From: a virus
Lineage: Duplodnaviria > Heunggongvirae > Uroviricota > Caudoviricetes
Length of the DNA stretch: 64,000 bases
Strand: one strand, 5' to 3'
Virus record (IMG/VR): IMGVR_UViG_3300042549_006728
Every line of letters begins with the position of its first letter. Position 1 is the stretch's first letter. The notes under the pieces were generated by a model. It saw nothing but the letters and a program-made list of their open reading frames with translations, ran no database searches and was not told where the DNA came from. A program made the translations under genes and the position numbers. This document shows positions 3,286 to 46,281 of the stretch, piece by piece.

Positions 3286-3708
3286 TTATAATTTTATTTC
3301 GAACCTATCTTTCATTATTTGAATTTTGTCTTCAGGAACACCATGTTCATTTATACCTTCGTGTCTATTTTCTACAATAATTGAGAACACTTTATAATCA
3401 TACTGTTTTGCCAACTCATAATAACGTTCCATTTCCCATTCTTGTGTAAATGTATTAGAAACTGCAATCTCTCTGTAGAAGTTATCGTTAATCAGTGAAT
3501 CCTTCATATATGTTTCAACTGTATCCTGACAGAATTTATGTGCGTCTTTGATTTTACTAAAATCAAAATTATATTCTCCAGTCTCTTTATCGACAAAATA
3601 TTTGTCCGCCTCACAAACTAAAAAATCGTGTTCCACTAATCTTTTGGCGAATGTAGATTTACCTGAACCAGGTACTCCTCTTACAATATATAAAATTTTA
3701 TCATCCAT
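3286..3708 (-). CDS. P-loop kinase (polynucleotide-kinase-like)
   Basis: Walker A GVPGSGKST close to the N-terminus; about 140 aa; sits beside a phosphoesterase and an RNA ligase. Confidence 0.55.
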   Translation of the reverse strand: MDDKILYIVRGVPGSGKSTFAKRLVEHDFLVCEADKYFVDKETGEYNFDFSKIKDAHKFCQDTVETYMKDSLINDNFYREIAVSNTFTQEWEMERYYELAKQYDYKVFSIIVENRHEGINEHGVPEDKIQIMKDRFEIKL

Positions 3709-3726
3709 TTTATTCTGATTTAAAGG

Positions 3727-4017
3727 TTAACAACTTTCTTGATATTCTTTTCCTCCTTGTGTAATAGCATCTAATACTCTAAATAAAGGAACTAATATAG
3801 TACCATTGGTATAGACTTCTTCTTTATCTTTAAAACTATAATCAATTATAAAATCAATAATCTTAAGCTGCTCATCTGTCAATGTTGTAGAATCTAATCT
3901 ACTTTTTACAGATATATCATTTTTTATTTCTTCTTTGTCCATCTTATTTTGATTTAGGTAGTTTTTATTAGGATACGGATATTGCAATAATAGCGATAAA
4001 AGTAAACCATATGACAA
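3727..4017 (-). CDS. Hypothetical protein
   Basis: ORF only. Confidence 0.4.
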   Translation of the reverse strand: MSYGLLLSLLLQYPYPNKNYLNQNKMDKEEIKNDISVKSRLDSTTLTDEQLKIIDFIIDYSFKDKEEVYTNGTILVPLFRVLDAITQGGKEYQESC

Positions 4018-4047
4018 CTACGATTATTGTTACTAAATTTGGGTTTT

Positions 4048-4230
4048 TCATCTTTTATATATCAAATAAGTTACTACCAAAATAACGATTAAAAGTAATA
4101 CTGGTATCCACAATGGTGCAGTTACCCACCACCAACTCCAATCAACGTGATTAGTTAGTTTTAGAACCATAAAAATAAGGAATAGAATCATACCTAATCC
4201 TATCCCACTTGATGAACTGTTTTCACTCAT
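4048..4230 (-). CDS. Small membrane protein (2 TM, Trp-rich)
   Basis: ORF with hydrophobic segments. Confidence 0.35.
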   Translation of the reverse strand: MSENSSSSGIGLGMILFLIFMVLKLTNHVDWSWWWVTAPLWIPVLLLIVILVVTYLIYKR

Positions 4231-4244
4231 AATTTATTATTTAT

Positions 4245-4901
4245 TTATATTCTTTTTTCGTGATGATCTTTTGGTAAACATAATTTTTTAATTGGTTGAT
4301 TTTTAACAATGGTTAAAATTTCATCCAAAGATAAGGGACATAAATTATTACCATCTACACCCACATCCAATGATTTACCGTCACCCAATCTTAAATTAGT
4401 TGGTAGGTGTACGTGACCATGTAAATGTATTGTACCATCATTCATACTATCCCACGATGCAATTGGGTAGTGCATACAGACAAAAGAGTATTTGTCCATC
4501 AACCCCTTACCCAAAATAGATGGTCTACGAACATCTAAAAACAAATAGTCGTGTGTTGAGGAAAAAATATCTTGTATATCTTCTTTGTTTTTGCGAATGT
4601 GGTGATCGTGATTCCCATAAGTTAAATGAACATTCTTACAGATTATTCTATTACGAAATTCCTCTATTTTCTCAAATCCACCAAAACTCCAATCACCCAA
4701 ATGAATCAATACATCATCTTCACCAACAACCTCATTAATATTATTCACTAATGTGTCATTCATATGATTGAGTGAATTAAACTTACGTGTTAGCTTTTCT
4801 GCACCAACCCAACCAGTTGTTGCAGAACAAATATTTGCGTGATTATAATGTGTATCACTCGTAAAAAATAACCGTTGCCCTTTTTCTAATACTAATTTCA
4901 T
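4245..4901 (-). CDS. Calcineurin-like metallophosphoesterase
   Basis: Motifs DTHYNH, GDWSFGG, GNHDHH and GHVH. Confidence 0.8.
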   Translation of the reverse strand: MKLVLEKGQRLFFTSDTHYNHANICSATTGWVGAEKLTRKFNSLNHMNDTLVNNINEVVGEDDVLIHLGDWSFGGFEKIEEFRNRIICKNVHLTYGNHDHHIRKNKEDIQDIFSSTHDYLFLDVRRPSILGKGLMDKYSFVCMHYPIASWDSMNDGTIHLHGHVHLPTNLRLGDGKSLDVGVDGNNLCPLSLDEILTIVKNQPIKKLCLPKDHHEKRI

Positions 4902-4924
4902 TTTACAAATATATTTATAATTTT

Positions 4925-5575
4925 TTAATATTCCAAACTTTTAGGTAAAAATAATAGGGTTGGGTTCTTCTTTTGAATATCTAAGTTTGGGTATTCCTCT
5001 TTAAATTTCATCACGTCAAACTTCTTAGTGATTAAATGGTACCCATTTTTAGTTGGGATAATAGCTTCAATCTTTGGACCAACTTCATGTCCAATTGGTA
5101 TTCCTACCTCGTCAAATTTAACTTTGGTAATTGGATTACATTTATATTCAATAAATGCCATCATTACTGGACTAGGTATATGACTATCATCGATATCTAT
5201 AATCCACCTCTTCTCGTGAGTTTTAATTTGACCAACAACTGAGTCAAATAAACCTTGTTGTTTATCTACACCATCTCTAATACGTTCTGCCAGTATCGCC
5301 AACATATTAAGGGAAACATCCTTATGGTTTTGTTTCTGAACATGAATATATGCCCTCGCCTTAAACATTTCACAAAGTTGTTTAATCTCGTCATACCTCT
5401 TTTCAAGATGATCAATAGATTCTATACAGTAAGTTTTAATTGTTCTTACTGACTGATGATTATCTCTTTCCCCTTCAGGTTGATCCTTTTTACGTTTAAA
5501 AACATATAACATATAAAAATCACCTTTATCAGTGAAATGTAATAGTGGTTTTATTAATTCTAAGTTATCTATCAT
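4925..5575 (-). CDS. Hypothetical protein in the RNA-repair neighbourhood
   Basis: ORF with a 4-nt overlap to the RNA ligase gene. Confidence 0.5.
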   Translation of the reverse strand: MIDNLELIKPLLHFTDKGDFYMLYVFKRKKDQPEGERDNHQSVRTIKTYCIESIDHLEKRYDEIKQLCEMFKARAYIHVQKQNHKDVSLNMLAILAERIRDGVDKQQGLFDSVVGQIKTHEKRWIIDIDDSHIPSPVMMAFIEYKCNPITKVKFDEVGIPIGHEVGPKIEAIIPTKNGYHLITKKFDVMKFKEEYPNLDIQKKNPTLLFLPKSLEY

Positions 5576-6627
5576 AGTTTCCTAAATTTTGGTTTTAAAG
5601 CACTCCATATAATTTTATCATAATCTTTACCATCCCACATCGCAAACATAATTGCCTTTGCAATTGGATGGTGATTCTTAATATGTTCCGCAAATTCTTT
5701 CTTAGTTGGTTCTACTTCTATATCACCGTATTTACCAAATCTAAAATAATCATAAGTTTTACCTAGTTGGTTATAGTATTGGTACCAATGATACCCCAAA
5801 CTACTGGCGTAAGTTTTAATCTTACCATAAAATTCATCAGGAACATCTTTAAGAAAATCTTCTATTTTACCACCACTAGATAAAATTTCCCATACAGTTG
5901 TAGTTGATACATTTGTCATTATTTTATGTAATCTGAGATATTCTTCACCCTTTATCTTCATTCTGTCACCATTAGAAAATTTAACTACATAACCCTCTTC
6001 ATCATCTTTTATTATATTTTTTAAGGTAGTAAAATCAGTTATGCCATCATATTTTTTAACTACTCTGAATCCTATATTTTGAATTAAATTTTTTAATCTT
6101 AAATCTACATCTTCACTATGTAAGACAACTTCATTTTCGGTTTTAGTATTTATCATACCTAATAACACTAAATCCTCAAAATCATACTGTACCACTATTC
6201 GATTATCATCGTATATGATTTCAAATAAATAAGTATAATCTTTATGTAACTTATCGTAATCATATTTTTGTAATAAATCAAAACCCTTTATAGATTGTTC
6301 AGAAGTGAATGAACCTCTAGTTGCCAATACCCATTGATCACCATAATGAAATAGAATTCCTAATGAACCATCCATTTTATCATAAACGTCAAATTCAGAT
6401 GTGGTAGTATGTTTACCTTCTTCCATATTAAAGAATTTTTTAAATGGTCTACCAACAATATCACCATCGGAATTTGTTACTAATCCCCTACACATCAGAG
6501 TTATATTATCCCATAATGATTCGTATTGTACTTTTTCACTATAATTCCAAATAGTTAGATCCAAAGTAGGGTGAACTTGTTTATGTAATAAACCCTTATC
6601 AAAATATTCATTTAAAATTTCATTCAT
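5572..6627 (-). CDS. RNA ligase (Rnl1-like, ATP-dependent)
   Basis: Nucleotidyltransferase motif I YDKMDGSLG (KxDGSL); 351 aa. Confidence 0.75.
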   Translation of the reverse strand: MNEILNEYFDKGLLHKQVHPTLDLTIWNYSEKVQYESLWDNITLMCRGLVTNSDGDIVGRPFKKFFNMEEGKHTTTSEFDVYDKMDGSLGILFHYGDQWVLATRGSFTSEQSIKGFDLLQKYDYDKLHKDYTYLFEIIYDDNRIVVQYDFEDLVLLGMINTKTENEVVLHSEDVDLRLKNLIQNIGFRVVKKYDGITDFTTLKNIIKDDEEGYVVKFSNGDRMKIKGEEYLRLHKIMTNVSTTTVWEILSSGGKIEDFLKDVPDEFYGKIKTYASSLGYHWYQYYNQLGKTYDYFRFGKYGDIEVEPTKKEFAEHIKNHHPIAKAIMFAMWDGKDYDKIIWSALKPKFRKL

Positions 6628-11682: not shown

Positions 11683-12417
11683 TTATAATTCAAATGTGGG
11701 TTTTAACCAAAGTCCTCTACTGAATATTAATTTAGTAAAACCTGGTATTCTTTGTTCCACCATACCAAATAAAGTTAATGTCGCCACAGTATCATGTTTC
11801 ATCATTTTTAAAACTTCCTCTCTGATTCTTTCTGCAGATACAACATCTTTAAGTTTATCCATTATTTCAGGTTGTTCCATAGCCCTAAAAATAGACTGGT
11901 GTATGAAGAATCCTTTAGTGATAGAAAATCTTAATGCCCTAAGAAATCTGAGTGGATCATCCATCATTGTTTGTTCGGCAGGTAAAGGAGTTTTTAGTAG
12001 TCTCGCACTTAAATGACCTTTACCGCCAAATAAATCAATTAGATTCCCATTTTCATCTTCCGCCATCGAATTCAATGTGAAATCTCTTCTAATTAGATCA
12101 TCTTCTAATGTCCCTAATTCTAAAATAGGTTGTCTAGTCCCTTCTTTGTAACCGACCTCTTTTCTTGCGAGAACAAAGTCCGCAACTAATCCTTCGTTAA
12201 CATCACCTTTAGGAAATTTAGCTCTGATAGTGAACATCTCTGGAGTAGAAAGGAATATAGTAAACTCTTTATGTTCCATCCATTGTTTCATTATTTCGAA
12301 ACCTTCATCTACTGTTCTATCTATGTTGTCGAGTACAAATGTGAAGTCAATATCTTTAGATTCAACACCTAAGATACTATCTCTTACACAACCACCAACT
12401 TTATATATCTGAGGCAT
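11683..12417 (-). CDS. tRNA nucleotidyltransferase (CCA-adding) / poly(A) polymerase head-domain protein
   Basis: GGCVRD...DIDF class II nucleotidyltransferase motif; 244 aa. Confidence 0.7.
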   Translation of the reverse strand: MPQIYKVGGCVRDSILGVESKDIDFTFVLDNIDRTVDEGFEIMKQWMEHKEFTIFLSTPEMFTIRAKFPKGDVNEGLVADFVLARKEVGYKEGTRQPILELGTLEDDLIRRDFTLNSMAEDENGNLIDLFGGKGHLSARLLKTPLPAEQTMMDDPLRFLRALRFSITKGFFIHQSIFRAMEQPEIMDKLKDVVSAERIREEVLKMMKHDTVATLTLFGMVEQRIPGFTKLIFSRGLWLKPTFEL

Positions 12418-12974: not shown

Positions 12975-13135
12975 AATTAGCGGAGATTTCATCCCATCCA
13001 TTGATCACCCAAGGACTCGTTTCTAATGTATTTGGCACTCCGCCATTGTAAGTTTTCTGTTGCTTACGCCCTCATTCGTGGACTTCCGACATCCCAATGA
13101 GTTTTACCGTCCTATCGGAGTCAGGTAACCGCTTG

Positions 13136-13227
13136 TAGTCAGGACAGGACTCGAACCTGTATGTACAGTTATACAGAACTGCACATCCCTGTATGGATAT
13201 TTGCGTCTACCATTTCGCCACCTGACT
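13136..13227 (-). ncRNA. tRNA-like element with canonical acceptor, D and T arms but an atypical central module
   Basis: AGTCAGG-TG-GCGAAATGGTAGACGC ... ACAGG-TTCGAGT-CCTGT-CCTGACT-A. The middle carries two hairpins, one of them CAGTT-CTGTATA-AACTG. Confidence 0.45.
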
Positions 13228-15658: not shown

Positions 15659-15775
15659 TAGTCAGAACAGGATTCGAACCTGTGTTTACACTTTACTTGT
15701 ATTAGTTGTGTCCGATAGATTGGGTATCAATACATTTCCCGCACCACCTGCTCTTAACCACTGAGCTACCTGACT
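15659..15775 (-). ncRNA. tRNA-like element with a type-I D-arm and an insert of about 65 nt replacing the anticodon arm
   Basis: AGTCAGG-TA-GCTC-AGTGGTTA-GAGC-A ... ACAGG-TTCGAAT-CCTGT-TCTGACT. Confidence 0.45.
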
Positions 15776-15869: not shown

Positions 15870-15994
15870 TAGTCAGGACAGGATTCGAACCTGTATGATA
15901 ACTTATGAGCAGTCTTAACGGGTCTTTCGAGGTTACTCGCGTTATCTTTACTATTAACCTTTATTCATGCGTCTACCAATTCCGCCACCTGACT
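15870..15994 (-). ncRNA. tRNA-like element with a central insert of about 74 nt
   Basis: AGTCAGG-TG-GCGGAATTGGTAGACGC ... ACAGG-TTCGAAT-CCTGT-CCTGACT. Confidence 0.45.
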
Positions 15995-16210: not shown

Positions 16211-16292
16211 TAGTCAGGACAGGATTCGAACCTGTAACATAACAATCGCTTTCAACCTTCTAGTTAGCGTCTACCAATTCCGCCACCTGACT
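16211..16292 (-). ncRNA. tRNA-like element of tRNA length with no foldable anticodon arm
   Basis: Same acceptor, D and T sequences as the 15870 element. The 31-nt middle (TAACTAGAAGGTTGAAAGCGATTGTTATGTT) has no 5-7-5 hairpin. Confidence 0.45.
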
Positions 16293-19814: not shown

Positions 19815-20567
19815 TCATAAACCTCTTTCTTTCATTAAATCAACATATTCTTTTTGTTTCTCAATTAAAATATATTGTCTATTATTATTTTTTGCTGCTA
19901 GTCCTGTAGTCCCCGTTCCAGCAAAACAATCTAAAACAACCTCACCTTCTTTTGTTGTTAATAATAAACAAGTTTCAGGTAGGGCTATGGGAAATCCTCC
20001 GTGCCCATATTGTGATTTAGTTTCTTTTCTACCAAAATCATTTTTGGATACTTTATTACCTTGATTAAATGGTATTTCCCAAACATTACCCACATTTTTT
20101 GTTTTGAAGATAGTAGGATTTTTATTATATGCTCCATCTTTATTTAAATCAACACCAGCCGATGTATGTCTTAACATAAACACATACTCAACCTGATTGG
20201 TTAATTGTCTATTAGAATTACAAGGTTGTTGATTAAATCTATACCATATTACCGTATCGTGTAATTTATACATCAATTCTTCTGTTGCAATATTTAATAT
20301 CTCAAATGCTCTAGTAGTTACTTCACTATCATTTATTACATTTAACCATAATGTTCCTGTTGGTTTAAGAACTCTCTTACATTCAATTAACCACTTCTTA
20401 GTCCATCTAATATATTGGGCATAAGAATTGAAATATGCTTCATAAGCAAATCCCTTCCAATAAGGAGGTGATGTGATAATACAATCAATACTACCATCCT
20501 TTAATTTTTTTAATTCTTCTATACAATCCCCTTCTATTATTGATTGGTGATTTACTTTTTTTTCCAT
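19815..20567 (-). CDS. DNA methyltransferase (N6-adenine / N4-cytosine, beta class)
   Basis: ITSPPYW catalytic motif and C-terminal FAGTGTTG SAM-binding motif. Confidence 0.8.
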   Translation of the reverse strand: MEKKVNHQSIIEGDCIEELKKLKDGSIDCIITSPPYWKGFAYEAYFNSYAQYIRWTKKWLIECKRVLKPTGTLWLNVINDSEVTTRAFEILNIATEELMYKLHDTVIWYRFNQQPCNSNRQLTNQVEYVFMLRHTSAGVDLNKDGAYNKNPTIFKTKNVGNVWEIPFNQGNKVSKNDFGRKETKSQYGHGGFPIALPETCLLLTTKEGEVVLDCFAGTGTTGLAAKNNNRQYILIEKQKEYVDLMKERGL

Positions 20568-20737
20568 AATTACCTTTTATTTTTTAATTCTTCTTTTAAT
20601 GATTCGTAAATATCAGTTAACAGATTTACATCATGTAATTTTTTTACAGTTTCCACTGTGTCTTGATTAACGGTTGAAGATATTAATACGTTATCTTCAT
20701 CATCAAGTAGTTGTAGTTTAATTTTCATATTTTTTAA

Positions 20738-21118
20738 TTATCTATTTTTAAATTTTTCATATTCTTCATCACAAAGAGTTCTGTACCAACCAAGATCCTT
20801 TCTCAACTCACCTGGTTTTCCTGTTTCTTCACAAATTTCATAACTTTTTCTCTCTGCCTCAGTTATTTTTTTGAATATTTCATCACTACCTCCATTGATG
20901 TAGAATCTAAGTCCACCAAATTTTTCTTTTACTTGACAAGTTTGTTTATCCCAACCCAAAGTTATTAGATCTTCAATTAATTCCTTTATCAATTCAAACC
21001 AACCATTATTAACATCAAAAAAGTTACAATCTTTAATGGGTTCCCTATCTGAATAGAAACCGTTTTCTAATCCCCCAATGGAAACTAAAAATTCGTTCAT
21101 TTGTTCATTAGTCATCAT
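20738..21118 (-). CDS. Hypothetical protein
   Basis: ORF only. Confidence 0.5.
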   Translation of the reverse strand: MMTNEQMNEFLVSIGGLENGFYSDREPIKDCNFFDVNNGWFELIKELIEDLITLGWDKQTCQVKEKFGGLRFYINGGSDEIFKKITEAERKSYEICEETGKPGELRKDLGWYRTLCDEEYEKFKNR

Positions 21119-21133
21119 ATTTTTTATTTAAAG

Positions 21134-21424
21134 TTAAAGATTATTTTTGTCTTTGTCAAATTCATCTAGATTATCATACAATCCGTTTTCCTGATCCATT
21201 CTCATAATTTCGGATAGATGAAATTCTTGACATTTTTTCAAATCAATCCCATGATTTAATCCTGAAATAAAATCATCCTTTTCCCAACCAAAAGAACCCT
21301 CAGAGAAATATAACCCTAAAACTATACCTATCTCATTTCCTATATCAGAAGAATCCCCATTATCATATGGTAGGTTAGATAACCTTTCAGAAATTTCTTT
21401 ACAAACTGTTAAAAAATCACTCAT
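21134..21424 (-). CDS. Hypothetical acidic protein
   Basis: ORF only. Confidence 0.45.
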   Translation of the reverse strand: MSDFLTVCKEISERLSNLPYDNGDSSDIGNEIGIVLGLYFSEGSFGWEKDDFISGLNHGIDLKKCQEFHLSEIMRMDQENGLYDNLDEFDKDKNNL

Positions 21425-23790: not shown

Positions 23791-24534
23791 CTACTTCTTT
23801 TTAAATTGTTCAAACCATTCTTTAAATGCTCCAAAGTATTTGAATTCTTTTTCACCAAATGTATATGCAGCTCTTACCATTTTTTCAACTTCTTCCTCAC
23901 TATACATTCTTTCAGCTTGCCATTTAGCACCTTCAATAAAACACTCTTTTGATGCATCACATATATCAATACCATTTATAACATAAACTCCTTCAATATA
24001 TCTTTTCTTAGCTGCTTCTTCAAGTGTTTCTTGTTTAGGTCCAGTATTACAAGTGCAAATATCCTTAATACAACCATACTCTTTTATATGTTCGCATTCT
24101 TGTTTAGGTTCTTCTTGTGGAATGATGATTTTGTATCCCACAAAAGGTTCAACCGTAAAATCAGAATATCTTTTCTGAACAGAAACGTGCTCACAACTCG
24201 GATTCTTAACAAACCATTGTAAAAAAGTATCATCAATAACTTGTACACCATCTTTGATTAAGTCTTGGTCGGTTGTTAGGATGATTTTTTTAAAAGTAAT
24301 ATCTTCAAATTGAGTATCAATAAATGAATACTTTTGTACGTTACCACCCCCCTTATAAAGAGAACTAATCTTAACAACCCAATCATCTTCTTTAATTTCT
24401 TCATCAGAAGTGATATAGATGTTTTGATATTCTGAACCATTATAAAAATCAAAGTTCCTAGTAAGTTTTAATTCACCACTCACTTTAAATAACCTACTTG
24501 GTTTATCTGTTGGTACTAAATGTATGTTTTTCAT
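23791..24534 (-). CDS. Hypothetical protein ending in a ...SEEEV...WFEQFKKK tail
   Basis: ORF. The C-terminal roughly 40 aa are homologous to the protein at 33053-33274. Confidence 0.5.
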   Translation of the reverse strand: MKNIHLVPTDKPSRLFKVSGELKLTRNFDFYNGSEYQNIYITSDEEIKEDDWVVKISSLYKGGGNVQKYSFIDTQFEDITFKKIILTTDQDLIKDGVQVIDDTFLQWFVKNPSCEHVSVQKRYSDFTVEPFVGYKIIIPQEEPKQECEHIKEYGCIKDICTCNTGPKQETLEEAAKKRYIEGVYVINGIDICDASKECFIEGAKWQAERMYSEEEVEKMVRAAYTFGEKEFKYFGAFKEWFEQFKKK

Positions 24535-24535
24535 A

Positions 24536-25036
24536 TCAAATCTTTCTAAGTATTAAACAACCATCTGAATCAAGTTTTGGATTACCTGTAGTTATACACT
24601 CACCTTTTCTGTTTACACCATCACAAGTAGGATCTAAACATTCTTCAACTATCTCAACATCCCATTCAGTTTGTTGTAGTGATGTAATATATTCACCCAA
24701 TGTTTCCTTATGATCTTGAAACTTTAATGCCTTGTTCCAACAATTCATCATATCTTCTAAAGTGAATAATTTATTTTTATTCAATTCGATTGATTTTTGG
24801 AATCCTTGTTTGAATGATCCGTAGTTATCTCCAACCTCATTATTATTGTTTGACCATTTATGACTATTCACGTCAATCCATTCTTCAGCCAACTCATCCA
24901 AATCATAACCACGCTCAATTGATTCACAGTTTTTAACAGATAACCTAGCATAAGGTGCGTTCTCATCTGTAGCATACATAATGTTGTTTACTAATAGCAT
25001 CCAACCATTATCTAATTTATTTAGTTTTGTTTTCAT
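24536..25036 (-). CDS. Hypothetical protein
   Basis: ORF only. Confidence 0.5.
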   Translation of the reverse strand: MKTKLNKLDNGWMLLVNNIMYATDENAPYARLSVKNCESIERGYDLDELAEEWIDVNSHKWSNNNNEVGDNYGSFKQGFQKSIELNKNKLFTLEDMMNCWNKALKFQDHKETLGEYITSLQQTEWDVEIVEECLDPTCDGVNRKGECITTGNPKLDSDGCLILRKI

Positions 25037-28405: not shown

Positions 28406-28480
28406 GTACCAAAGGTGAGATTCGAACTCACAAACCTTTGTTTCTAAGACAAAGAGGTATACCGATTCCCGTCACTTTGG
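28406..28480 (-). tRNA. tRNA with anticodon UAG (Leu by anticodon) and a short variable arm (atypical)
   Basis: Acceptor GCCAAAG/CTTTGGT, anticodon stem-loop TTTGT-CTTAGAA-ACAAA, T-arm GTGAG-TTCGAAT-CTCAC. Confidence 0.6.
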
Positions 28481-28486
28481 CATTTT

Positions 28487-28559
28487 GAGCAGGTAGAGAG
28501 AATCGAACTCTCGTCCTCTGATTGGAAGTCAGACATAATAAGCCACTATACGATACCTG
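28487..28559 (-). tRNA. tRNA-Gly (UCC)
   Basis: Acceptor GCAGGTA/TACCTGC, anticodon stem-loop TCTGA-CTTCCAA-TCAGA, T-arm GAGAG-TTCGATT-CTCTC. Confidence 0.8.
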
Positions 28560-28560
28560 C

Positions 28561-28595
28561 ATTAAGATTATTTTCTCTTAATCTTTTTTTTTAAT
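28561..28595 (+). terminator. Hairpin plus T9 run (plus-strand terminator-like)
   Basis: taagatta-ttttctc-ttaatctt followed by ttttttttt. Confidence 0.4.
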
Positions 28596-28731
28596 TTAAT
28601 AAATTTTATTAATCTTATTAAATTAATAGAATTTTTTCTAGACTCGATAATATTAAAATTATCTTTCGATGATCTACCAGAACCCGTCATTACCTCTCTC
28701 ATACTTATTTATTTTACTTTTTATTATTTGT

Positions 28732-28804
28732 GGATACATCTCGGCTTCGAACCGAGGACTCCTGAGTGCAAATCAGGTGTGATAGCCAGCTTCACCAATG
28801 ACCC
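28732..28804 (-). tRNA. tRNA with anticodon UGC (Ala by anticodon); the acceptor stem has two mismatches and no G3:U70
   Basis: D GTGA-AGCTGGCTA-TCAC, anticodon stem-loop CCTGA-TTTGCAC-TCAGG, T-arm CTCGG-TTCGAAG-CCGAG. Confidence 0.55.
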
Positions 28805-28810
28805 AAATGG

Positions 28811-28885
28811 TTGCGGGACTGGGACTCGAACCCAGAACTTCGGCTTATGAGACCGACGAGATAACCAATTTCTACATATCCCGCA
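28811..28885 (-). tRNA. tRNA-Met, initiator-like (CAU)
   Basis: CTCGTCGGTCTCATAAGCCGAAG anticodon arm and a ...CCCGCAAC 3' end, as in bacterial tRNA-fMet; T1:A72 base pair. Confidence 0.8.
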
Positions 28886-28918
28886 ATTTTTAATTACACC
28901 GAATTCGGTATAATTGAG

Positions 28919-28993
28919 TTCCCCCGACAGGATTCGAACCTGTGGCCCGTACATTAAAAGTGTAATGCTCTAAACCAACTGAGCTACGAGGGA
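28919..28993 (-). tRNA. tRNA-Lys (UUU)
   Basis: TA-GCTC-AGTTGGTTTA-GAGC-A-TTACA-CTTTTAA-TGTAC...CAGG-TTCGAAT-CCTG. Confidence 0.8.
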
Positions 28994-28999
28994 TTGTTG

Positions 29000-29071
29000 A
29001 GGTTTCGCTCAGATTCGAACTGAGGACACTTGATTACAAATCAAGAGTTTTACCGACTAAACTACAAAACC
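29000..29071 (-). tRNA. tRNA-Thr (UGU)
   Basis: Acceptor GGTTTTG/CGAAACC, anticodon stem-loop CTTGA-TTTGTAA-TCAAG, T-arm CTCAG-TTCGAAT-CTGAG. Confidence 0.8.
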
Positions 29072-29077
29072 TAATTG

Positions 29078-29151
29078 TCACCCGTATGGGATTTGAACCC
29101 ATGATCTTTTCCGTGAAAGGGAAACGACTTAAACCGCTTGTCCAACGGGCG
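29078..29151 (-). tRNA. tRNA-Glu (UUC), second copy
   Basis: Acceptor CGCCCGT/ACGGGTG, anticodon stem-loop TTTCC-CTTTCAC-GGAAA, T-arm ATGGG-TTCAAAT-CCCAT. Confidence 0.7.
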
Positions 29152-29159
29152 ATATTTAG

Positions 29160-29232
29160 TAGTCTCTGTAGGGTTCGAACCTACGACAACTTGCATGTAA
29201 AACAAGTGCTCTACCAACTGAGCTAAGAGACT
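29160..29232 (-). tRNA. tRNA-Val (UAC)
   Basis: Acceptor AGTCTCT/AGAGACT, anticodon stem-loop CTTGT-TTTACAT-GCAAG, T-arm GTAGG-TTCGAAC-CCTAC. Confidence 0.8.
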
Positions 29233-29233
29233 G

Positions 29234-29309
29234 TGGCGGTCCATGACGGTTACGATCCGTCTACTCTACCGTGACAGGGTAGGATGATAAGCCATTTCAC
29301 CAATAGACC
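29234..29309 (-). tRNA. tRNA-Asp (GUC) with encoded CCA and a non-canonical T-loop (ATCGTAA)
   Basis: Acceptor GGTCTAT/ATGGACC, D GTGA..TCAT, anticodon stem-loop CTACC-CTGTCAC-GGTAG, 3' end ...G-CCA. Confidence 0.6.
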
Positions 29310-29311
29310 AT

Positions 29312-29459
29312 TTAAATGATAATCAGGATTAGATTATATACGTGCTCTACCAACTGAGCTACCGCCGCCCCGAAGGACAACGGACAGGATTCGAACCTGC
29401 GACACCGAGCTTAAAAGGCTAATGTAATTGTTGCTGAAACAATCCTTTTATTATCATTT
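29312..29459 (-). ncRNA. Y RNA-like / circularly permuted tRNA-like RNA (YrlA-type candidate)
   Basis: Terminal stem AAATGATAAT...GGATT pairs with AATCC...ATTATCATTT, with an internal bulge. Internally the RNA order is T-arm GCAGG-TTCGAAT-CCTGT, then the hairpin CCGTTGTCC-TTCG-GGGCGGCGG (acceptor-like stem capped by a UUCG loop), then D-arm TA-GCTC-AGTTGGTA-GAGC. A second hairpin ATTGT-TTCAGCA-ACAAT is also present. Confidence 0.55.
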
Positions 29460-29460
29460 G

Positions 29461-29546
29461 AGGAAGAGGTAGGATTCGAACCTACGGTACCTTTCAGTAC
29501 GCTAGTTTTCAAGACTAGTACAATAAACCAACTCTGTCACTCTTCC
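29461..29546 (-). tRNA. tRNA-Ser (UGA), type II
   Basis: Acceptor GGAAGAG/CTCTTCC, anticodon stem-loop CTAGT-CTTGAAA-ACTAG, variable arm GTAC-TGAAAG-GTAC. Confidence 0.8.
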
Positions 29547-29569
29547 AATTTTTACCAATACGTCAAAGA

Positions 29570-29606
29570 ACTAAAAACAAAAAACCCTAAGTTCTCACTT
29601 AGGGTT
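29570..29606 (-). terminator. Factor-independent terminator (minus strand)
   Basis: aaccctaag-ttctca-cttagggtt followed on the minus strand by TTTTTGTTTTTAG. Confidence 0.6.
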
Positions 29607-29754
29607 TCCATTATATAGTATTTAAATTTTTAAATGTTATCTATTACAATATACCCTAAGATCTGGTTGCAGCGAATCCGCTCCCTCCATTTTCGTCTTA
29701 ACGACCTCTAATCTGTATGTCATTGTATTTTTCATTGAAATTTTTACCTTTTTA

Positions 29755-29820
29755 ATTAAATATACATAAAGTTACGAAAGTTTCTTCAAAAAGTCAAATA
29801 ATTTTTAATTTTTTTTAAAA
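29755..29820. promoter_or_regulatory. Repeated AAAGTTTC..AAAAGTCAAATA..TTTTTTTT element (minus-strand TTGACT -35-like), copy 1
   Basis: About 65 bp similar to 31845-31910, with a shorter version at 46322-46364. Confidence 0.35.
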
Positions 29821-29835
29821 TTTATTTTATTTAAG

Positions 29836-29909
29836 AGGTCAGAGAGGGATTCGAACCCCCGAATAATGGATTTGCAGTCCACCCCTTTAAACCACTCAGG
29901 CATCTGACC
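29836..29909 (-). tRNA. tRNA-Cys (GCA)
   Basis: Acceptor GGTCAGA/TCTGACC, anticodon stem-loop GTGGA-CTGCAAA-TCCAT, T-arm GGGGG-TTCGAAT-CCCTC. Confidence 0.7.
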
Positions 29910-29978
29910 ATTAGTTCACTAAACTATAATTTGCTCGATAAACTATATCTGTTTATTGTAGCAAAAATAAGTTTATTG

Positions 29979-30051
29979 TACACTCTGAGAGATTCGAACT
30001 CCCATCTTATAGTCCGTAGCCATATGTTCTGATCCGTTGAACTAAGAGTGT
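29979..30051 (-). tRNA. tRNA-Arg (ACG)
   Basis: Acceptor ACACTCT/AGAGTGT, anticodon stem-loop TATGG-CTACGGA-CTATA, T-arm GGGAG-TTCGAAT-CTCTC. Confidence 0.75.
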
Positions 30052-30053
30052 AT

Positions 30054-30128
30054 TGGTAGGGATGGGTGGAGTCGAACCACCGAGACAACTGTATAAGAGT
30101 TGCATGTTCACCGTTACATCACATCCCC
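30054..30128 (-). tRNA. tRNA-Ile (UAU), encoded CCA
   Basis: Acceptor GGGGATG/CATCCCT, anticodon stem-loop CAACT-CTTATAC-AGTTG, T-arm GGTGG-TTCGACT-CCACC, then ACCA. Confidence 0.7.
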
Positions 30129-30135
30129 ATTTTTG

Positions 30136-30223
30136 CGGAAAGAATAGGATTCGAACCTATGGTACCCTTACGAGTACAACACCTTAGCAGGGTGCCTCAA
30201 TAAACCAACTCTGACATCTTTCC
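30136..30223 (-). tRNA. tRNA-Ser (GCU), type II
   Basis: Acceptor GGAAAGA/TCTTTCC, anticodon stem-loop GCACC-CTGCTAA-GGTGT, long variable arm. Confidence 0.8.
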
Positions 30224-30228
30224 ATTTG

Positions 30229-30302
30229 GGTGTATGACGGGAATTGAACCCGTGACCTTTTGATTCACAATCAAACACTCTAACCAACTGAGCTACATAC
30301 AC
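30229..30302 (-). tRNA. tRNA-His (GUG)
   Basis: Acceptor GTGTATG/CATACAC, anticodon stem-loop TTTGA-TTGTGAA-TCAAA, T-arm ACGGG-TTCAATT-CCCGT, discriminator C. Confidence 0.8.
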
Positions 30303-30304
30303 AG

Positions 30305-30375
30305 TTGTCTCCCAAGGATTCGAACCTCGATTCAGTGGTCCAAAACCACTTGTCCTGCCTTTAGACGAGGAGACA
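30305..30375 (-). tRNA. tRNA-Gln (UUG)
   Basis: Acceptor TGTCTCC/GGAGACA with U1:A72, anticodon stem-loop AGTGG-TTTTGGA-CCACT, T-arm CGAGG-TTCGAAT-CCTTG. Confidence 0.8.
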
Positions 30376-30438
30376 ATTTAAAATTATTCACTACCCAAAT
30401 ATCGAATTTTTTACTACTTTTGGGAAGTTAATAATTAG

Positions 30439-30513
30439 TCTGGGTAGCGAGACTCGAACTCACATTATGTCCACATCCCAAATGTGGCGGCTTACCAATT
30501 AGCCAATACCCAG
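30439..30513 (-). tRNA. tRNA-Pro (UGG)
   Basis: Acceptor CTGGGTA/TACCCAG, anticodon stem-loop CCACA-TTTGGGA-TGTGG, T-arm GTGAG-TTCGAGT-CTCGC. Confidence 0.8.
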
Positions 30514-30520
30514 TTAAAAG

Positions 30521-30594
30521 TGGTGATGGGTGGAATCGAACCACCGACAACCTAGATCTTCAATCTAGTGCTCTACCAACTGAGCTACATCACC
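30521..30594 (-). tRNA. tRNA-Phe (GAA)
   Basis: Acceptor GGTGATG/CATCACC, anticodon stem-loop CTAGA-TTGAAGA-TCTAG, T-arm GGTGG-TTCGATT-CCACC. Confidence 0.85.
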
Positions 30595-30599
30595 ATTTG

Positions 30600-30672
30600 C
30601 ACATCTCCAAGGATTCGAACCCTGATCAAACGATTTGGAGTCGTTTATGCTAAACCATTACACCAGAGATGT
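30600..30672 (-). tRNA. tRNA-Trp (CCA)
   Basis: Acceptor ACATCTC/GAGATGT, anticodon stem-loop AACGA-CTCCAAA-TCGTT, T-arm CAGGG-TTCGAAT-CCTTG. Confidence 0.8.
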
Positions 30673-30756
30673 GTATAAATGTTCAGGAAGACTTTTTGTT
30701 TTCAAATTTCCGATCTTGATTTTTTTATTTTGCTGAAATCTTCCTTTTAACATTTG

Positions 30757-30839
30757 TGAGGGTAGTAGGATTCGAACCTACTCAGTCATAGACAACAGAT
30801 TTACAGTCTGCCCCAACTCTCCAACTTTGGCGTACCCCC
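30757..30839 (-). tRNA. tRNA-Tyr (GUA), type II
   Basis: Acceptor GGGGGTA/TACCCTC, anticodon stem-loop GCAGA-CTGTAAA-TCTGT, variable arm, T-arm GTAGG-TTCGAAT-CCTAC. Confidence 0.75.
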
Positions 30840-30855
30840 ATTATTAATTTAATCA

Positions 30856-31395
30856 CTAAACATTTATTAAACCCGCATGTATTTCTGAATGACAATTAGA
30901 ACACACTAAAATACATTTATCTACTTCATATTTTAATTTTTCGAAGGATAAACTTTTACCTGATATTGTAAAATCTTTACTATTAGGATTTAAATGGTGG
31001 AATTCTAACGCATTAAAACATTTGTTATATCCACAAATTTGACACTTACCACCTTTATATTCTACTAATCTAATTTTCACTCTCTTTCTCCATAAAATAA
31101 CAGATTCAGAAGATGTCATTGTTTTAATTCTATCTTTAGTTTTAATATATTTTTTTAAAGTATCAAAAGAACGTTTAGTTATTTTAGATACTTTTTTTAT
31201 TGAACCTAGTTCATCATATAATTTTTGATATAATTCAATGTCCTCTTTAGTAGTTTTTTGATTATTATCACCTAAACCATTCATTTTACAATGATAAGAA
31301 ACTGTAGACATTGCACACCCTAAAATCTTAGTTATCTCTTTATACGTTTTACCTTCTTTTCTTAATTCTAAAATTTTTTTCGAATACCTTTCCAT
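30856..31395 (-). CDS. HNH homing-type endonuclease with an N-terminal HTH
   Basis: CQICGYNKCFNALEFHHLNPN...CSNCHSEIH HNH motif. It sits between two tRNA blocks. Confidence 0.75.
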   Translation of the reverse strand: MERYSKKILELRKEGKTYKEITKILGCAMSTVSYHCKMNGLGDNNQKTTKEDIELYQKLYDELGSIKKVSKITKRSFDTLKKYIKTKDRIKTMTSSESVILWRKRVKIRLVEYKGGKCQICGYNKCFNALEFHHLNPNSKDFTISGKSLSFEKLKYEVDKCILVCSNCHSEIHAGLINV

Positions 31396-31472
31396 AAGAT
31401 TAACATTTTTAATTAATAAATATGGTATAATACTAATAATTTAATTTTAAAAAATCAATAGGTAAAAAATTG

Positions 31473-31559
31473 CTGACGGGGTGGGATTCGAACCCACGGT
31501 GGAGAAATTCTCGTCGGATTAACAGTCCGATGCGTTCGGCCTACTACGCGAACCCGTCA
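31473..31559 (-). tRNA. tRNA-Asn (GUU) with an unusually long variable region
   Basis: Acceptor TGACGGG/CCCGTCA, anticodon stem-loop TCGGA-CTGTTAA-TCCGA, variable region of about 16 nt, T-arm GTGGG-TTCGAAT-CCCAC. Confidence 0.65.
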
Positions 31560-31598
31560 TTTACTTTCATAACAATATGTCAAAGAACTTTTGTTCTG

Positions 31599-31674
31599 TC
31601 GGTATGGTAGGGATCGAACCTACGAATCTTCTCGATATCAGCGAGATGCCTTAAACCAACTTGGCCACATACCG
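31599..31674 (-). tRNA. tRNA-Ile (GAU)
   Basis: Acceptor CGGTATG/CATACCG, anticodon stem-loop TCTCG-CTGATAT-CGAGA, T-arm GTAGG-TTCGATC-CCTAC. Confidence 0.8.
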
Positions 31675-36985: not shown

Positions 36986-37051
36986 TAAAGGGCCGATAGG
37001 ATCACTATCAACTTCCACCACTTCGTTTTTAAGGAACAAAGAAACCTAATG

Positions 37052-37449
37052 TGGAGATGGAGGGAGTCGAACCCTCGTCCAATCAAATTGCCATTAAAAA
37101 TTCATTCACAAGCTTAGTTCATTTTTCTTAATGAACAAAATATTTGGTTTTATTTATAACATGGTTACCAACAACCCTGTTTCGATAATTGTTTAGAGAG
37201 TTTTACCGTCAACTCTATTTTTTACACCTTTCTGTTTCTAGGTAAGTGTGACCCACCGATTAAACTAATTCCATTAATTCAATCTCTTCAACCACCGCTG
37301 AGCGAGTGATAGAAGTTGGGATACTCATCATATCCTCTGTGTTGTATGCGTTTGCATTTATATTTTGATAGGTGTTTAAGGGTTTCCATCTAACCCTGCT
37401 TGCATCATTTCAAACTCAACCTTTGACTGTCAAATCCAAAACCATCCCC
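37052..37449 (-). ncRNA. ssrA: tmRNA (SsrA)
   Basis: 5' end GGGGATGGTTTTGGATTTGACAG..., 3' end ...GAGGG-TTCGACT-CCCTC-CATCTCC-A. Acceptor GGGGATG/CATCTCC with G3:U70. GCA-AAC-GCA-TAC... resume frame at about nt 95. About 398 nt. Confidence 0.8.
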
Positions 37450-44307: not shown

Positions 44308-44349
44308 GTTATAAAATAAAAAAGGGAAAGTATTTCTACTCTCCCTTTT
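44308..44349 (-). terminator. Factor-independent terminator (minus strand) closing the rsr transcription unit
   Basis: aaaggga...tcccttt hairpin followed on the minus strand by TTTTATTTTAT. Confidence 0.55.
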
Positions 44350-44865
44350 AAATTTTGGTGTCGGAATGGTGATCCTTCTTTTATTTTCGGTGGTAGAGTA
44401 CCCACCCTAAGTATTTTAATCCGTTCTAGTTCGGATGTCTTATTATTTAGTTGAGACAAAACCAACTACTATTTTTTACTTGTAGTAAACAAGAGGTATG
44501 TTTTACGACCTAAAGTGTAGGGGTTTCCTACGTTTAAACTCTCCTATGGTCGCCACTTTATATTTTTTTTCGAGTAAAGTGGTAAAACTCTGATCTATCT
44601 GCTTTTTTTCTAGTAAGTGTTTGCAGAAACCATTCGTTTATCGGACTTAAAGGGAATTCGTATATTCCCAATCCATTACACCTAATAACATTGTGGTATC
44701 GGAATTGTCTGACACTTTACATAACTCTGAGTGGTCCCCCGCTTTCACGGTTTACACCCTTATGGTTATATGGGTTATCAAAGCCCCTCTTTCTTAGCTG
44801 AATTGTAGTTTTTTAATTTTGCTGCAATTATTCCTTAGCTACCACAAATATTTTCAAAGAACTTA
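44350..44865 (-). ncRNA. Structured non-coding region 3' of rsr; candidate Y RNA locus
   Basis: About 516 nt with no long ORF, between the rsr stop and the terminator. Local GC enrichment and multiple perfect hairpins (GGGAAT-ATACGA-ATTCCC, GGTGG-GTACTCTA-CCACC, CCACTTTA...TAAAGTGG) plus a GTCCGA motif. Confidence 0.35.
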
Positions 44866-46281
44866 TTATACAGTTATTACACTATATCTTTTATCATTAA
44901 CAGTATCCATCATTATGGATTCTGGTGTCATATTTTTACCCCCTAATAGAGACTTTAGTATTGATGGACTAAATCCCGAAACTAATGCAGTTCCGTTTTT
45001 ATCAAACTCAACTGGAAAGTTACCACCACTAGAATTTAAATTCCAATATACTACATTAGGCATTTTATATCCTGCCTCTTTATACATTTCCTCAATCATC
45101 GATTGTGCACCCAAACTATTTCTTCTAGTTGCCTGATTGAATTGCATATCAGATAAAATTAATATCTTAGTCGGCATAAATTCCTCACTAATATTATTGT
45201 TTTTTGCCTGAGTTAGAATTAAGTTAAATACTTTTTCTAAATTAGTACTCATACCCCAATCTGAACTTATTAATTGTGATAGTCTTTGTTCTAAACTACC
45301 TTTTAAATACTGTAATTCAGGACTTTCGGAAAATGTAATAAATGCATCTTTGAAGTTACCTTCACTTCTTTCAGAAATATACATACCTAATGATACTGCA
45401 ATATCCATACAAGTTAGGTTTGGGTTACCTCCCGCTGGACATTCCATAGACCCTGAAACGTCAACAACTGGTAAAATTCTTTCTTCAGATCCCTCCATCC
45501 AATTAGGTAGTGACTCCCACTGTTTACTATTTACTACTTCATCACCACCCATCTTCATAGATTTTATAATGTCGTATGGGTAAACCGCACCTGCATTAAC
45601 TTTTGCAGTTCCTTCAATTAGAGAATTTTTATACTCCTCATATCTTTCAATATCATTTCTTTTAAATGATTTTTGGTATCTTGATGATGCCAATGAAGGA
45701 ATTTTTGAGTAGTCGATTGATTCCCAATCTTTTGAACACATCTTAGTTTCTACAACATTAGTTAAATCAACTAACATTTTTCTATATTGTTTAGGAGTAG
45801 TTTTAAATAATCTTCTAAGTTTATTTGCCACTTCACCTTTTCTAGGCATCCATTTTGCACAAAGTCCATCACCGTTAGTTAATGCGGTTTTGATAATTTC
45901 AAACATTTCATCCTCTAATTCGGTACCCATAAGGACTAATATATCATCCCATCTACCAAACTCTGAAATAAAATTTATATTTTTTCTAAGTGTTATAGGT
46001 GAGTTGACAGATAGATACTCAATAACGTCTCTAAATACTTTTCTTTCACCCGCACCACTTCTAATATCTCTAACCCAAAAAAGTATTTTTGTTGCCACTA
46101 AAGGATTTTCTAAAAAGGCTTGATTAAAAAGTTTATTAACCAATTCTTTAGATTTTCCTCTCATCGCCCCAATAGCGAAAAATAAATCCACACACTTATT
46201 AAGTGTCGTAGGATTGGTAACCATACCATTATCGGTTAATGTTACATTTTGTTCTTCCGTATTAGTTAACTGAGTGTCCAT
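44866..46281 (-). CDS. rsr: Ro60/Rsr orthologue (TROVE domain plus von Willebrand A domain)
   Basis: LFFAIGAMRGKS aligns with LFALAIYTQRRDGM; YPYDIIKSM with HPFHILIAL; ERILPVVDVSGSM with KRFLLAVDVSASM at the MIDAS site. The C-terminal vWA block order matches human Ro60. Confidence 0.75.
   Translation of the reverse strand: MDTQLTNTEEQNVTLTDNGMVTNPTTLNKCVDLFFAIGAMRGKSKELVNKLFNQAFLENPLVATKILFWVRDIRSGAGERKVFRDVIEYLSVNSPITLRKNINFISEFGRWDDILVLMGTELEDEMFEIIKTALTNGDGLCAKWMPRKGEVANKLRRLFKTTPKQYRKMLVDLTNVVETKMCSKDWESIDYSKIPSLASSRYQKSFKRNDIERYEEYKNSLIEGTAKVNAGAVYPYDIIKSMKMGGDEVVNSKQWESLPNWMEGSEERILPVVDVSGSMECPAGGNPNLTCMDIAVSLGMYISERSEGNFKDAFITFSESPELQYLKGSLEQRLSQLISSDWGMSTNLEKVFNLILTQAKNNNISEEFMPTKILILSDMQFNQATRRNSLGAQSMIEEMYKEAGYKMPNVVYWNLNSSGGNFPVEFDKNGTALVSGFSPSILKSLLGGKNMTPESIMMDTVNDKRYSVITV

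Follow-up and report, generated by a model that had tools for sequence, protein, structure and literature searches.

Within a dense tRNA array of a phage of the class Caudoviricetes there is an element that default gene calling leaves blank, and the question that it raises is whether it is a decayed or unusual tRNA, a regulatory signal or an RNA of a different kind. The stretch of DNA analyzed (IMG/VR record IMGVR_UViG_3300042549_006728, 64,000 nucleotides, hereafter the window) carries 22 tRNA genes around this element, from 28406 to 31674. An earlier note, made from the sequence alone, had described the minus strand of 29312-29459 as a circularly permuted tRNA-like module within a long bulged stem, i.e., the architecture of the bacterial Y RNAs known as YrlA, placed between tRNA-Asp and tRNA-Ser(UGA). 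Both neighbors were found, and they leave practically no free space: tRNA-Ser(UGA) (29460-29546, minus strand) abuts the 5' end of the element, and tRNA-Asp(GUC) (29234-29309, minus strand) starts 2 nt past its 3' end. Sequence comparison indicates that the element is a real, conserved noncoding RNA composed of two modules, a top half like that of a tRNA and a basal module distinct from it. It is likely, in our opinion, that it is a stand-alone Y RNA of the YrlA type, freed from the tRNA transcript, which would bind a Ro60-like protein encoded by the same phage.

All the parts that the earlier note had read in permuted order (T arm, 9-bp stem capped by UUCG and D arm) could be located on the minus strand of 29312-29459, and its ends do pair in a long bulged stem, of 10 + 7 bp. 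The minimum-free-energy fold recovers this basal stem together with the T arm, the closed stem and the D arm (-44.1 kcal/mol, z = -3.4), a stability matched by 1 of 200 shuffles. Since the closed acceptor-like stem includes three G-U pairs, it pairs on the minus strand only. Starting from the 5' end, the outer basal stem has the strand AAAUGAUAAU (29450-29459), whose partner, according to sequence and fold, is AUUAUCAUUU (29314-29323). Three nucleotides (AAA) separate it from the 5' strand of the inner basal stem, AGGAUUG (29440-29446), which pairs with UAAUCCU (29325-29331), and the latter is followed by an invariant G, bulged here, at 29324. Next to the inner stem comes a conserved unpaired motif, UUUCAGCAAC (29430-29439, with the core CAGCAA at 29431-29436), which recurs in short elements flanking Ro-like genes. 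The variable (V) region of 29 nt (29401-29429) forms, as judged from sequence and fold, a small hairpin with the 7-nt loop CUUUUAA, and the GUGUC that follows the hairpin resembles the variable loop of a tRNA, its last base being C48. The T arm, GCAGG/UUCGAAU/CCUGU (29384-29400), was assigned from the sequence and from the alignment to the Rfam YrlA model; the closed acceptor-like stem, CCGUUGUCC-UUCG-GGGCGGCGG (29362-29383), has 7 + 2 bp and does not encode CCA. U8 and A9 precede the D arm GCUC/AGUUGGUA/GAGC (29344-29361 altogether, 29344-29359 for the D arm), where A14, G15, G18 and G19 are present, and a linker of 12 nt leads to the 3' strand of the inner stem. Several nucleotides involved in tRNA tertiary contacts are found, namely G15:C48, G18, G19 and the T loop UUCGAAU. 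The core conserved in the family described below extends from 29318 to 29450. An outer stem (TAGACA/TGTCTA) analogous to that of the window was read by eye in the closest relatives (L054, L056 and L104); in these and in the window it lengthens the helix, the invariant G becomes a bulge, and this produces the long bulged stem of the earlier note. One part of that description had to be abandoned, a hairpin ATTGT-TTCAGCA-ACAAT, since what was taken for its 5' arm belongs to the inner basal stem throughout the homologues. We considered the hairpin ATTGT/ACAAT and rejected it: it is unable to form in other family members, where TTCAGCAAC is a conserved unpaired motif.

Relatives were found by pattern scans of IMG/VR. 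The first one (T loop and D arm joined by 18 to 30 bases) returned mostly tandem tRNAs, plus two near-identical relatives of the window (L032 and L033) and several loop-closed elements, of which L026 and L028 have TTCAGCAAC and the AGGAU stem in common with it. When TTCAGCAAC and a subsequent T loop were used as the pattern, at least 119 loci were obtained, many with the same architecture and some with elements in tandem. We built a covariance model with four helices (R1) from an alignment (A1) of 35 elements, and at E <= 1e-7 it matched 83 elements in 55 viral loci plus the window and phage FelixO1. The window has a single strong copy, the element itself, with 96 bits (E = 4e-17). Among the 77 distinct homologue sequences used for covariation, 97.6% of the cells hold standard pairs and 21 of the 23 pairs have double-sided changes; it should be noted that these pair counts derive from a model-fitted alignment, which favors the modeled structure. 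The covariation score was 0.87 vs 0.22 in shuffles (none of 500 reached the observed value) and at most 0.14 with slid partners. Compensatory changes are found at the 7 pairs of the inner basal stem (98.7% of cells paired), the 7 pairs of the closed acceptor-like stem and 4 of the 5 pairs of the T arm, and the D stem also covaries. Before any model fitting, RNAalifold had already found the basal, T and D helices, and compensatory changes in them, in a plain MAFFT alignment. In the comparison of homologues, one of the checks proposed in the earlier note, all four helices are supported by compensatory changes. Outside the helices, U8 and A14 are invariant (77 of 77), and position 15 covaries with position 48 (A15:U48 in 34 sequences, G15:C48 in 28, other combinations in 15), as Chen et al. 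reported in 2014 for YrlA (PMC4201824). The motif U(U/A/G)CAGCAA is located 2 to 3 nt past the basal stem, including in copies that the search pattern had not selected, and a G stands after the 3' strand of the basal stem in every listed 4-mer.

The composition of the element, one part of it reminiscent of one tRNA and the rest of another, brings up a first rival explanation, a relic left where two tandem tRNA genes decayed (the 3' two-thirds of one and the 5' third of the next), which would have no function of its own. The element lies within a dense tRNA array, its 5' part looks like an anticodon arm, variable loop and T arm, with relaxed settings ARAGORN calls a 'tRNA-Lys(ttt)' there, and Chen et al. 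already warned that tandem tRNAs can mimic YrlA (PMC4201824). Tandem tRNAs also match R1; however, their junctions, taken from 13 sources, score ca. 40 bits or less, far below the element. Its acceptor-like strands pair together across the UUCG tetraloop, and the two halves do not each belong to a full cloverleaf that includes an anticodon arm. A basal stem of this kind does not exist in tRNA, and it covaries at every one of its seven pairs. In L032 and L033 the sole difference from the window over the stretch compared is one base, in an unpaired linker, and both architecture and CAGCAA recur in unrelated phages with hosts that range from Actinobacteria to Enterobacteria. With a basal stem that covaries and a family as broad as this one, the two-tRNA relic is excluded for practical purposes, and we give it hardly any weight.

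The earlier note had predicted that gene callers would miss or mis-call the element, and this was the case: ARAGORN at default settings called nothing at 29312-29459, nor did an Rfam scan of the window at gathering thresholds find anything there. When Rfam was applied permissively to the 201 bases around the element, its tRNA model gave only 15 bits (E = 1.3) and did not cover the D arm, and the single meaningful match was YrlA (RF02553), with 33.2 bits vs a gathering score of 69. This match spans model positions 24 to 84 only, that is, the T arm, the closed stem and the D arm; positions 1 to 23 and 85 to 114, the flanks with the presumed Rsr-binding motif, remained unaligned to the window element. 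The GNCGAAN0-1G motif of YrlA is absent from 29312-29459, and U(U/A/G)CAGCAA stands at that position. In the FelixO1 and BigCheese phage copies, the Rfam YrlA model had no match at E <= 0.01. Thus, the YrlA assignment holds for the architecture, for which YrlA is the only matching Rfam family and which covariation supports; it does not hold as strict membership, as both the defining motif and the Rfam gathering score are lacking. This is a sister family of YrlA with a different motif and a proposed Ro60-like partner of the DUF2828 type, and not Rfam YrlA in the strict sense. The resemblance to YrlA (PMC4201824) extends to the order of the parts (5' stem strand, V region, T arm, closed acceptor-like stem, D arm and 3' stem strand), to the tRNA tertiary nucleotides that are kept, with the 15:48 covariation, and to the presence of a Ro60-type ring protein in the genome, and some members of the family have a 7-bp acceptor stem and then CCA, as in the YrlA of Mycobacterium smegmatis. 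In contrast, U(U/A/G)CAGCAA beside an A-GG/CC-U-G basal stem replaces GNCGAAN0-1G, the proposed partner is DUF2828/PHROG 850 and not a TROVE-annotated Rsr, and the window copy is in a tRNA operon 15 kb from the gene. Classical GNCGAAG-type or otherwise YrlA-like elements were also met in viral loci (L003, L015, L029 and L030), with no TROVE or DUF2828 gene in the flanks fetched. The one in L030 (4518-4651, minus strand), which lies in the tRNA island of a virus and is a loop-closed tRNA-like element of the classical GNCGAAG type, matches the Rfam family RF01656 (nematode sRNA ceN72-3_ceN74-2) over the full model, with 46 bits vs a gathering score of 38.

The order of the arms is also that of a permuted tRNA gene. 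In Cyanidioschyzon merolae, permuted tRNA genes have the 3' half upstream of the 5' half and their acceptor strands are connected by a short linker, as happens here, and ordinary tRNAs with an anticodon loop are made from them via bulge-helix-bulge splicing. The second rival is therefore a circularly permuted or split tRNA gene whose product, cut by RNase P and CCA-ended, would be used in translation or as a chargeable tRNA-like molecule. Running ARAGORN with permutation and introns, as the earlier note had advised, did draw a cloverleaf once the sequence was rotated to the acceptor 5' strand. It is class-II-like, with a 51-nt 'intron' that is the basal stem and an 'anticodon' (aac) that comes from the CAGCAAC motif. 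In 11 of the 77 members, the 7-nt acceptor 3' strand is immediately followed, within the loop of the closed stem, by a purine and CCA (ca. 1 expected by chance; among them L037, L051, L075, L083, L111, L117, L138, L146 and L150). This hints that some members are cut by RNase P, which would expose a tRNA-like 3' end, like the M. smegmatis YrlA, which is cleaved and then gets CCA (PMC4201824); an RNA ligase and an enzyme of the CCA-adding type are among the products of the window phage. However, no CCA is encoded in the window element, a tetraloop closes its acceptor-like stem, and this copy is probably not cut in that way. Unlike the genes of C. merolae, it has a conserved stem-and-motif module (basal stem and CAGCAA) where the anticodon stem-loop should be, and neither a bulge-helix-bulge motif nor a splicing endonuclease is evident. 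Furthermore, the short members of the group have the basal module without any tRNA part, which places the conserved function in the basal module. With no anticodon arm, no CCA in the window copy and these short members, a true permuted tRNA gene seems quite improbable to us, though not to the degree of the relic.

Particles made of Ro60 and Y RNAs have been studied in depth in animals and some few bacteria, whereas only a handful of phage cases are known. The Y RNA reading requires a protein partner, and the window has a candidate, a gene of 471 amino acids (44866-46281, minus strand) with DUF2828 and DUF7788 domains, assigned to PHROG 850 ('RNA-binding protein') and carrying the MIDAS motif DVSGSM. 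We obtained an AlphaFold2 model of this protein from an alignment of 72 sequences (mean pLDDT 79, pTM 0.73), and the top six PDB matches found by Foldseek were all Ro60 proteins (E = 1e-8 to 9e-5), with lone von Willebrand factor A (vWA) domains coming next. The best match was the Ro60 of Thermus phage phiLo (9KOP; E = 1e-8, TM 0.54), followed by those of Xenopus and human. The window protein is therefore predicted to fold like Ro60. Single-sequence and profile searches against PDB were marginal, so the link to Ro60 needed structure prediction. Homologues with DUF2828 appear in 711 of 50,697 GenBank phage records, where they are annotated as 'RNA-binding protein', 'vWFA protein' or, in mycobacteriophages, 'Ro-like RNA binding protein'.

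YrlA RNAs, which are characterized by binding of Rsr and by modification through TruB and DusA, adjoin Ro60 genes in bacteria and in 22 phages (PMC4201824), and the family described here also keeps company with the Ro-like gene. A DUF2828 gene lies within 21 of the 55 element-bearing loci, which have a mean length of 8.6 kb, and in the 31 element-gene pairs both are on the same strand (31 of 31), most of them <500 nt apart. As a set free of the bias of the RNA pattern, we used 11 cultured phages fetched by their protein alone. R1 matched strongly in BigCheese, 98 nt past the gene, and in FelixO1, 1 kb past it. A short signature (stem of at least 6 bp, 2 to 3 nt, CAGCAA, then the 3' strand with a G after it) has 30 occurrences on the strand of the gene vs 6 on the opposite strand in these 11 phages, mostly as tandem copies of 50 to 70 nt that abut the gene. 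The phages concerned are FelixO1, BigCheese and one phage each of Staphylococcus, Campylobacter, Aeromonas, Rhizobium and Enterococcus. FelixO1 (L153, NC_005282.1) carries four unannotated Y-like RNAs in the tRNA cluster just downstream of its 'RNA-binding protein' ORF42, three of them short and one tRNA-like (5752-5819, 5919-5977, 6373-6441 and 6456-6591 in L153, ca. 23872-24711 in the record), and all four have AGAAGACC...ACAGCAA...GGUCUGG. In record coordinates, the short ones are at ca. 23872-23939, 24039-24097 and 24493-24561 and the tRNA-like one at 24576-24711. In BigCheese (L157, MH834600.1), the unannotated gap that follows the gene for the 'Ro-like RNA binding protein' is occupied by three tandem Y-like RNAs, in the order short (5436-5486), tRNA-like (5493-5625, 71.6 bits) and short (5631-5693). 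The neighborhood of the RNA family with the Ro60-fold gene is not random. In the record of Citrobacter phage Ci1, a 'tRNA-Pseudo-AAC' is listed downstream of the Ro-like gene, ca. 600 nt away, and this may be a mis-call of the sort expected for this RNA family.

Inside the window, a second Y-like RNA candidate is found directly past the stop codon of the Ro-like gene (44691-44847, minus strand), and four relatives conserve it and show compensatory changes. The outer stem, UUGUGGUA/UACCACAA, is separated by a loop from the inner one, GGAAU/AUUCC, after which comes UG-CAGCAA, and the apical domain is not tRNA-like. These 157 nt are the first part of a conserved structured intergenic RNA of ca. 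520 nt (44320-44850, minus strand) that has a terminator at its end; RNAalifold over five related genomes gave 126 pairs for it, 23 of them with compensatory changes, and Rfam had no match on it. Two otherwise unrelated RNAs of the window, one of which abuts the gene, thus have the basal module in common. Within the window, this is the best argument for the module being the binding site of the protein, and we propose UUUCAGCAAC, with its CAGCAA, as the recognition site of the Ro-like protein. A third candidate, a short Y-like RNA of 62 nt between tRNA-Tyr and tRNA-Trp (30684-30745, minus strand; AGGAAGAU-UU-CAGCAA...UCUUCCU-G), fits the consensus of the family flanks; taken by itself, the signature does not reach significance in the window (p about 0.16 to 0.2 from shuffles), and a pattern scan for relatives of it found none, the one true element returned being that of L168, beside a DUF2828 gene.

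Copies so close to the gene also suit a third rival explanation, in which the stem and CAGCAA would be a cis signal (for processing, stability or autoregulation) of the Ro-like gene and tRNA transcripts, and not part of a trans-acting stable RNA. In L041, L091, L105 and L129, truncated elements make up the 5' leader of the DUF2828 gene, immediately before the ribosome-binding site and start codon, and consist only of the 5' stem, UUCAGCAAC, the V hairpin and the T-arm hairpin, which suggests a leader or autoregulatory use of the same module. Tandem copies abut the gene, as seen above, and the second window copy (44691-44847) is apparently cotranscribed with it up to the terminator. On the other hand, the window element is 15 kb from the gene, in a tRNA operon, where its tRNA-like fold would be excised as a molecule of its own, the conserved tRNA tertiary-contact nucleotides have no obvious role in cis, and known Ro60 partners act in trans. 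A purely cis role is possible for the leader copies and unlikely for the window copy, and as a general explanation we regard it as improbable, albeit the least improbable of the three. Cis and trans roles are compatible, and the protein could also regulate itself via the leader copies.

Besides the fitted alignment mentioned above, several points weigh against a Y RNA bound by this protein. The connection to Ro60 rests on a predicted structure with TM-scores of only 0.36 to 0.54, and by sequence the profile match of the window protein to the Ro60 proteins in PDB was not significant (E = 0.35 to 0.9) and the single-sequence match was marginal (E = 0.0024). The Ro-like gene is not adjacent to the element; it is 15.4 kb upstream, on the same strand, when for YrlA a TROVE gene is expected within ca. 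4 kb on the same strand, and the gene is of the DUF2828 type. As the GNCGAA motif of YrlA is absent, the mode of recognition is not simply transferable from Rsr. In 4 of the 11 protein-selected phages (phi-ST2, LP-048, Ci1 with the strict pattern and the Erwinia jumbo phage), no convincing module was found within 5 kb of the gene. The location on the same strand has little weight, since genes of a phage module are usually co-oriented, and the co-occurrence is possibly inflated because Ro-like genes and tRNA-like elements both favor tRNA islands. For a Y RNA in the broad sense, the window does have a bulged stem of paired ends with conserved nucleotides and a variable apical module (tRNA-like, a hairpin or a larger domain, depending on the RNA that bears the basal module), and it has a Ro60-fold protein in the same genome according to the predicted structure, with a weak link at the sequence level.

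Metazoan Y RNAs and Yrn1 and Yrn2 of Deinococcus radiodurans are comparable in that they measure ca. 100 nt, their paired ends make the bulged stem bound by Ro60, the apical module is variable and several different Y RNAs coexist in a genome; in the animal ones, the stem motif is GGUCCGA with a bulged C and there is no tRNA-like module. Closer in biology is Thermus phage phiLo, whose Ro60 binds two adjacent Y-like RNAs and polynucleotide phosphorylase (PNPase) (PMC12135203). Like the phages described here, it has a Ro60-like ring protein (9KOP, 9L5Y) with Y-like RNAs next to the gene; unlike them, Yrl1 and Yrl2 were chosen by a CGAA motif and a stem-bulge-stem shape, with no tRNA-like module described (PMC12135203), and phiLo Ro60 and the window protein have ca. 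17% sequence identity. In phage Bas63, the Ro60-like gp130 has been reported to counter the Ppl defense system, and the authors, in a preprint, guess only that nearby 'tRNAs' might be Y RNAs (PMC11482910). Beyond this guess, no description of these RNAs was found in the literature searched for DUF2828 and Ro-like phage proteins.

If the element is indeed a stand-alone Y RNA, it would be transcribed within the phage tRNA operon together with the tRNAs, its 5' end arising from the 3' processing of tRNA-Ser and its 3' end from RNase P cleavage at tRNA-Asp. The presumed ring protein (44866-46281) would bind the basal module, that is, the bulged stem with the conserved A-GG/CC-U pairs, the invariant G just 3' of it and the unpaired U(U/A/G)CAGCAA. 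The apical module, which copies the tRNA top half (T arm, closed acceptor stem, D arm and the nucleotides for the U8-A14, 15:48 and D-loop/T-loop contacts), would give the RNA stability and attract either factors that bind tRNA or an exoribonuclease of the host, e.g., PNPase, by analogy with YrlA/Rsr and phiLo Ro60. Such a particle would act during infection in RNA surveillance or repair, or in the evasion of defense. A tRNA-repair kit is encoded in the window at 3286-6627 and 11683-12417 (minus strand), with a P-loop kinase (AAA_33), a metallophosphoesterase, an RNA ligase of the T4 Rnl1 type and a CCA-adding-type nucleotidyltransferase. These genes, as well as the published work on YrlA/Rsr/PNPase, phiLo Ro60 and Bas63 gp130, fit the role proposed. 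We can extend the proposal, tentatively and with more doubt than conviction, to a phage-wide and previously undescribed class of Ro60-like particles defined by the bulged stem and CAGCAA, in which one ring protein would work with interchangeable RNAs that would be the agents of the anti-defense activity of the Bas63 protein. The RNAs would comprise tRNA mimics, hairpin RNAs of 50 to 70 nt and, in the lineage of the window, a structured RNA of ca. 160 to 520 nt. The ring protein would be DUF2828/PHROG 850, which at least 711 phages with sequenced genomes possess (FelixO1-like, Listeria, Staphylococcus and Campylobacter phages and cluster-L mycobacteriophages are among them), and the route to anti-defense could be, for example, the recruitment of host exoribonucleases or the decoying of tRNA-directed immunity.

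Even without this extension, a common phage 'RNA-binding protein' gains candidate RNA partners, of which none was identified in the literature searched. They are concrete and conserved, have a defined motif and occur in the tractable FelixO1 and, by extension, in Bas63, and binding, structure and anti-defense function can now be tested directly. They also reveal an annotation gap, as the family is widespread in phages, was missed or mis-called in the GenBank records examined and has no model reaching threshold in Rfam 15.

The window is AT-rich (ca. 29% G+C) and almost all of its genes are on the minus strand. A terminator-like hairpin upstream of tRNA-Ser (29580-29609, minus strand; detected only by a consensus scan) suggests that a new transcription unit starts just before tRNA-Ser and passes through the element. 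A megablast of 24 kb of the window against GenBank phages gave no match, and a distant blastn of the locus against the same phages returned tRNA matches only. There is a second tRNA cluster with odd tRNA-like genes on the minus strand (13135-13227, 15659-15775, 15870-15994 and 16211-16292): one of them, of 93 nt, has a call with a 4-base anticodon (taca), and three are Rfam tRNA matches of 82 to 125 nt with no ARAGORN call, which may carry introns or insertions. The phage also encodes a tmRNA (37049-37449, minus strand; 113 bits) with the tag peptide ANAYNTEDMMSIPTSITRSAVVEEIELMELV. Close to the tRNA-repair kit there are NAD-salvage genes (NAMPT-like and PRPP-transferase-like). In Listeria phage LP-048 (L159, 4974-11479), the Ro-like gene has tRNAs as neighbors, together with an RtcB-like ligase, an RNA ligase and a phosphohydrolase, an arrangement that resembles the bacterial rsr-rtcBA. 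Finally, a relative of the window phage (L172) encodes a protein with an SprB domain at 20528-21419, which hints at a host among the Bacteroidota (gliding bacteria) for this group of phages.

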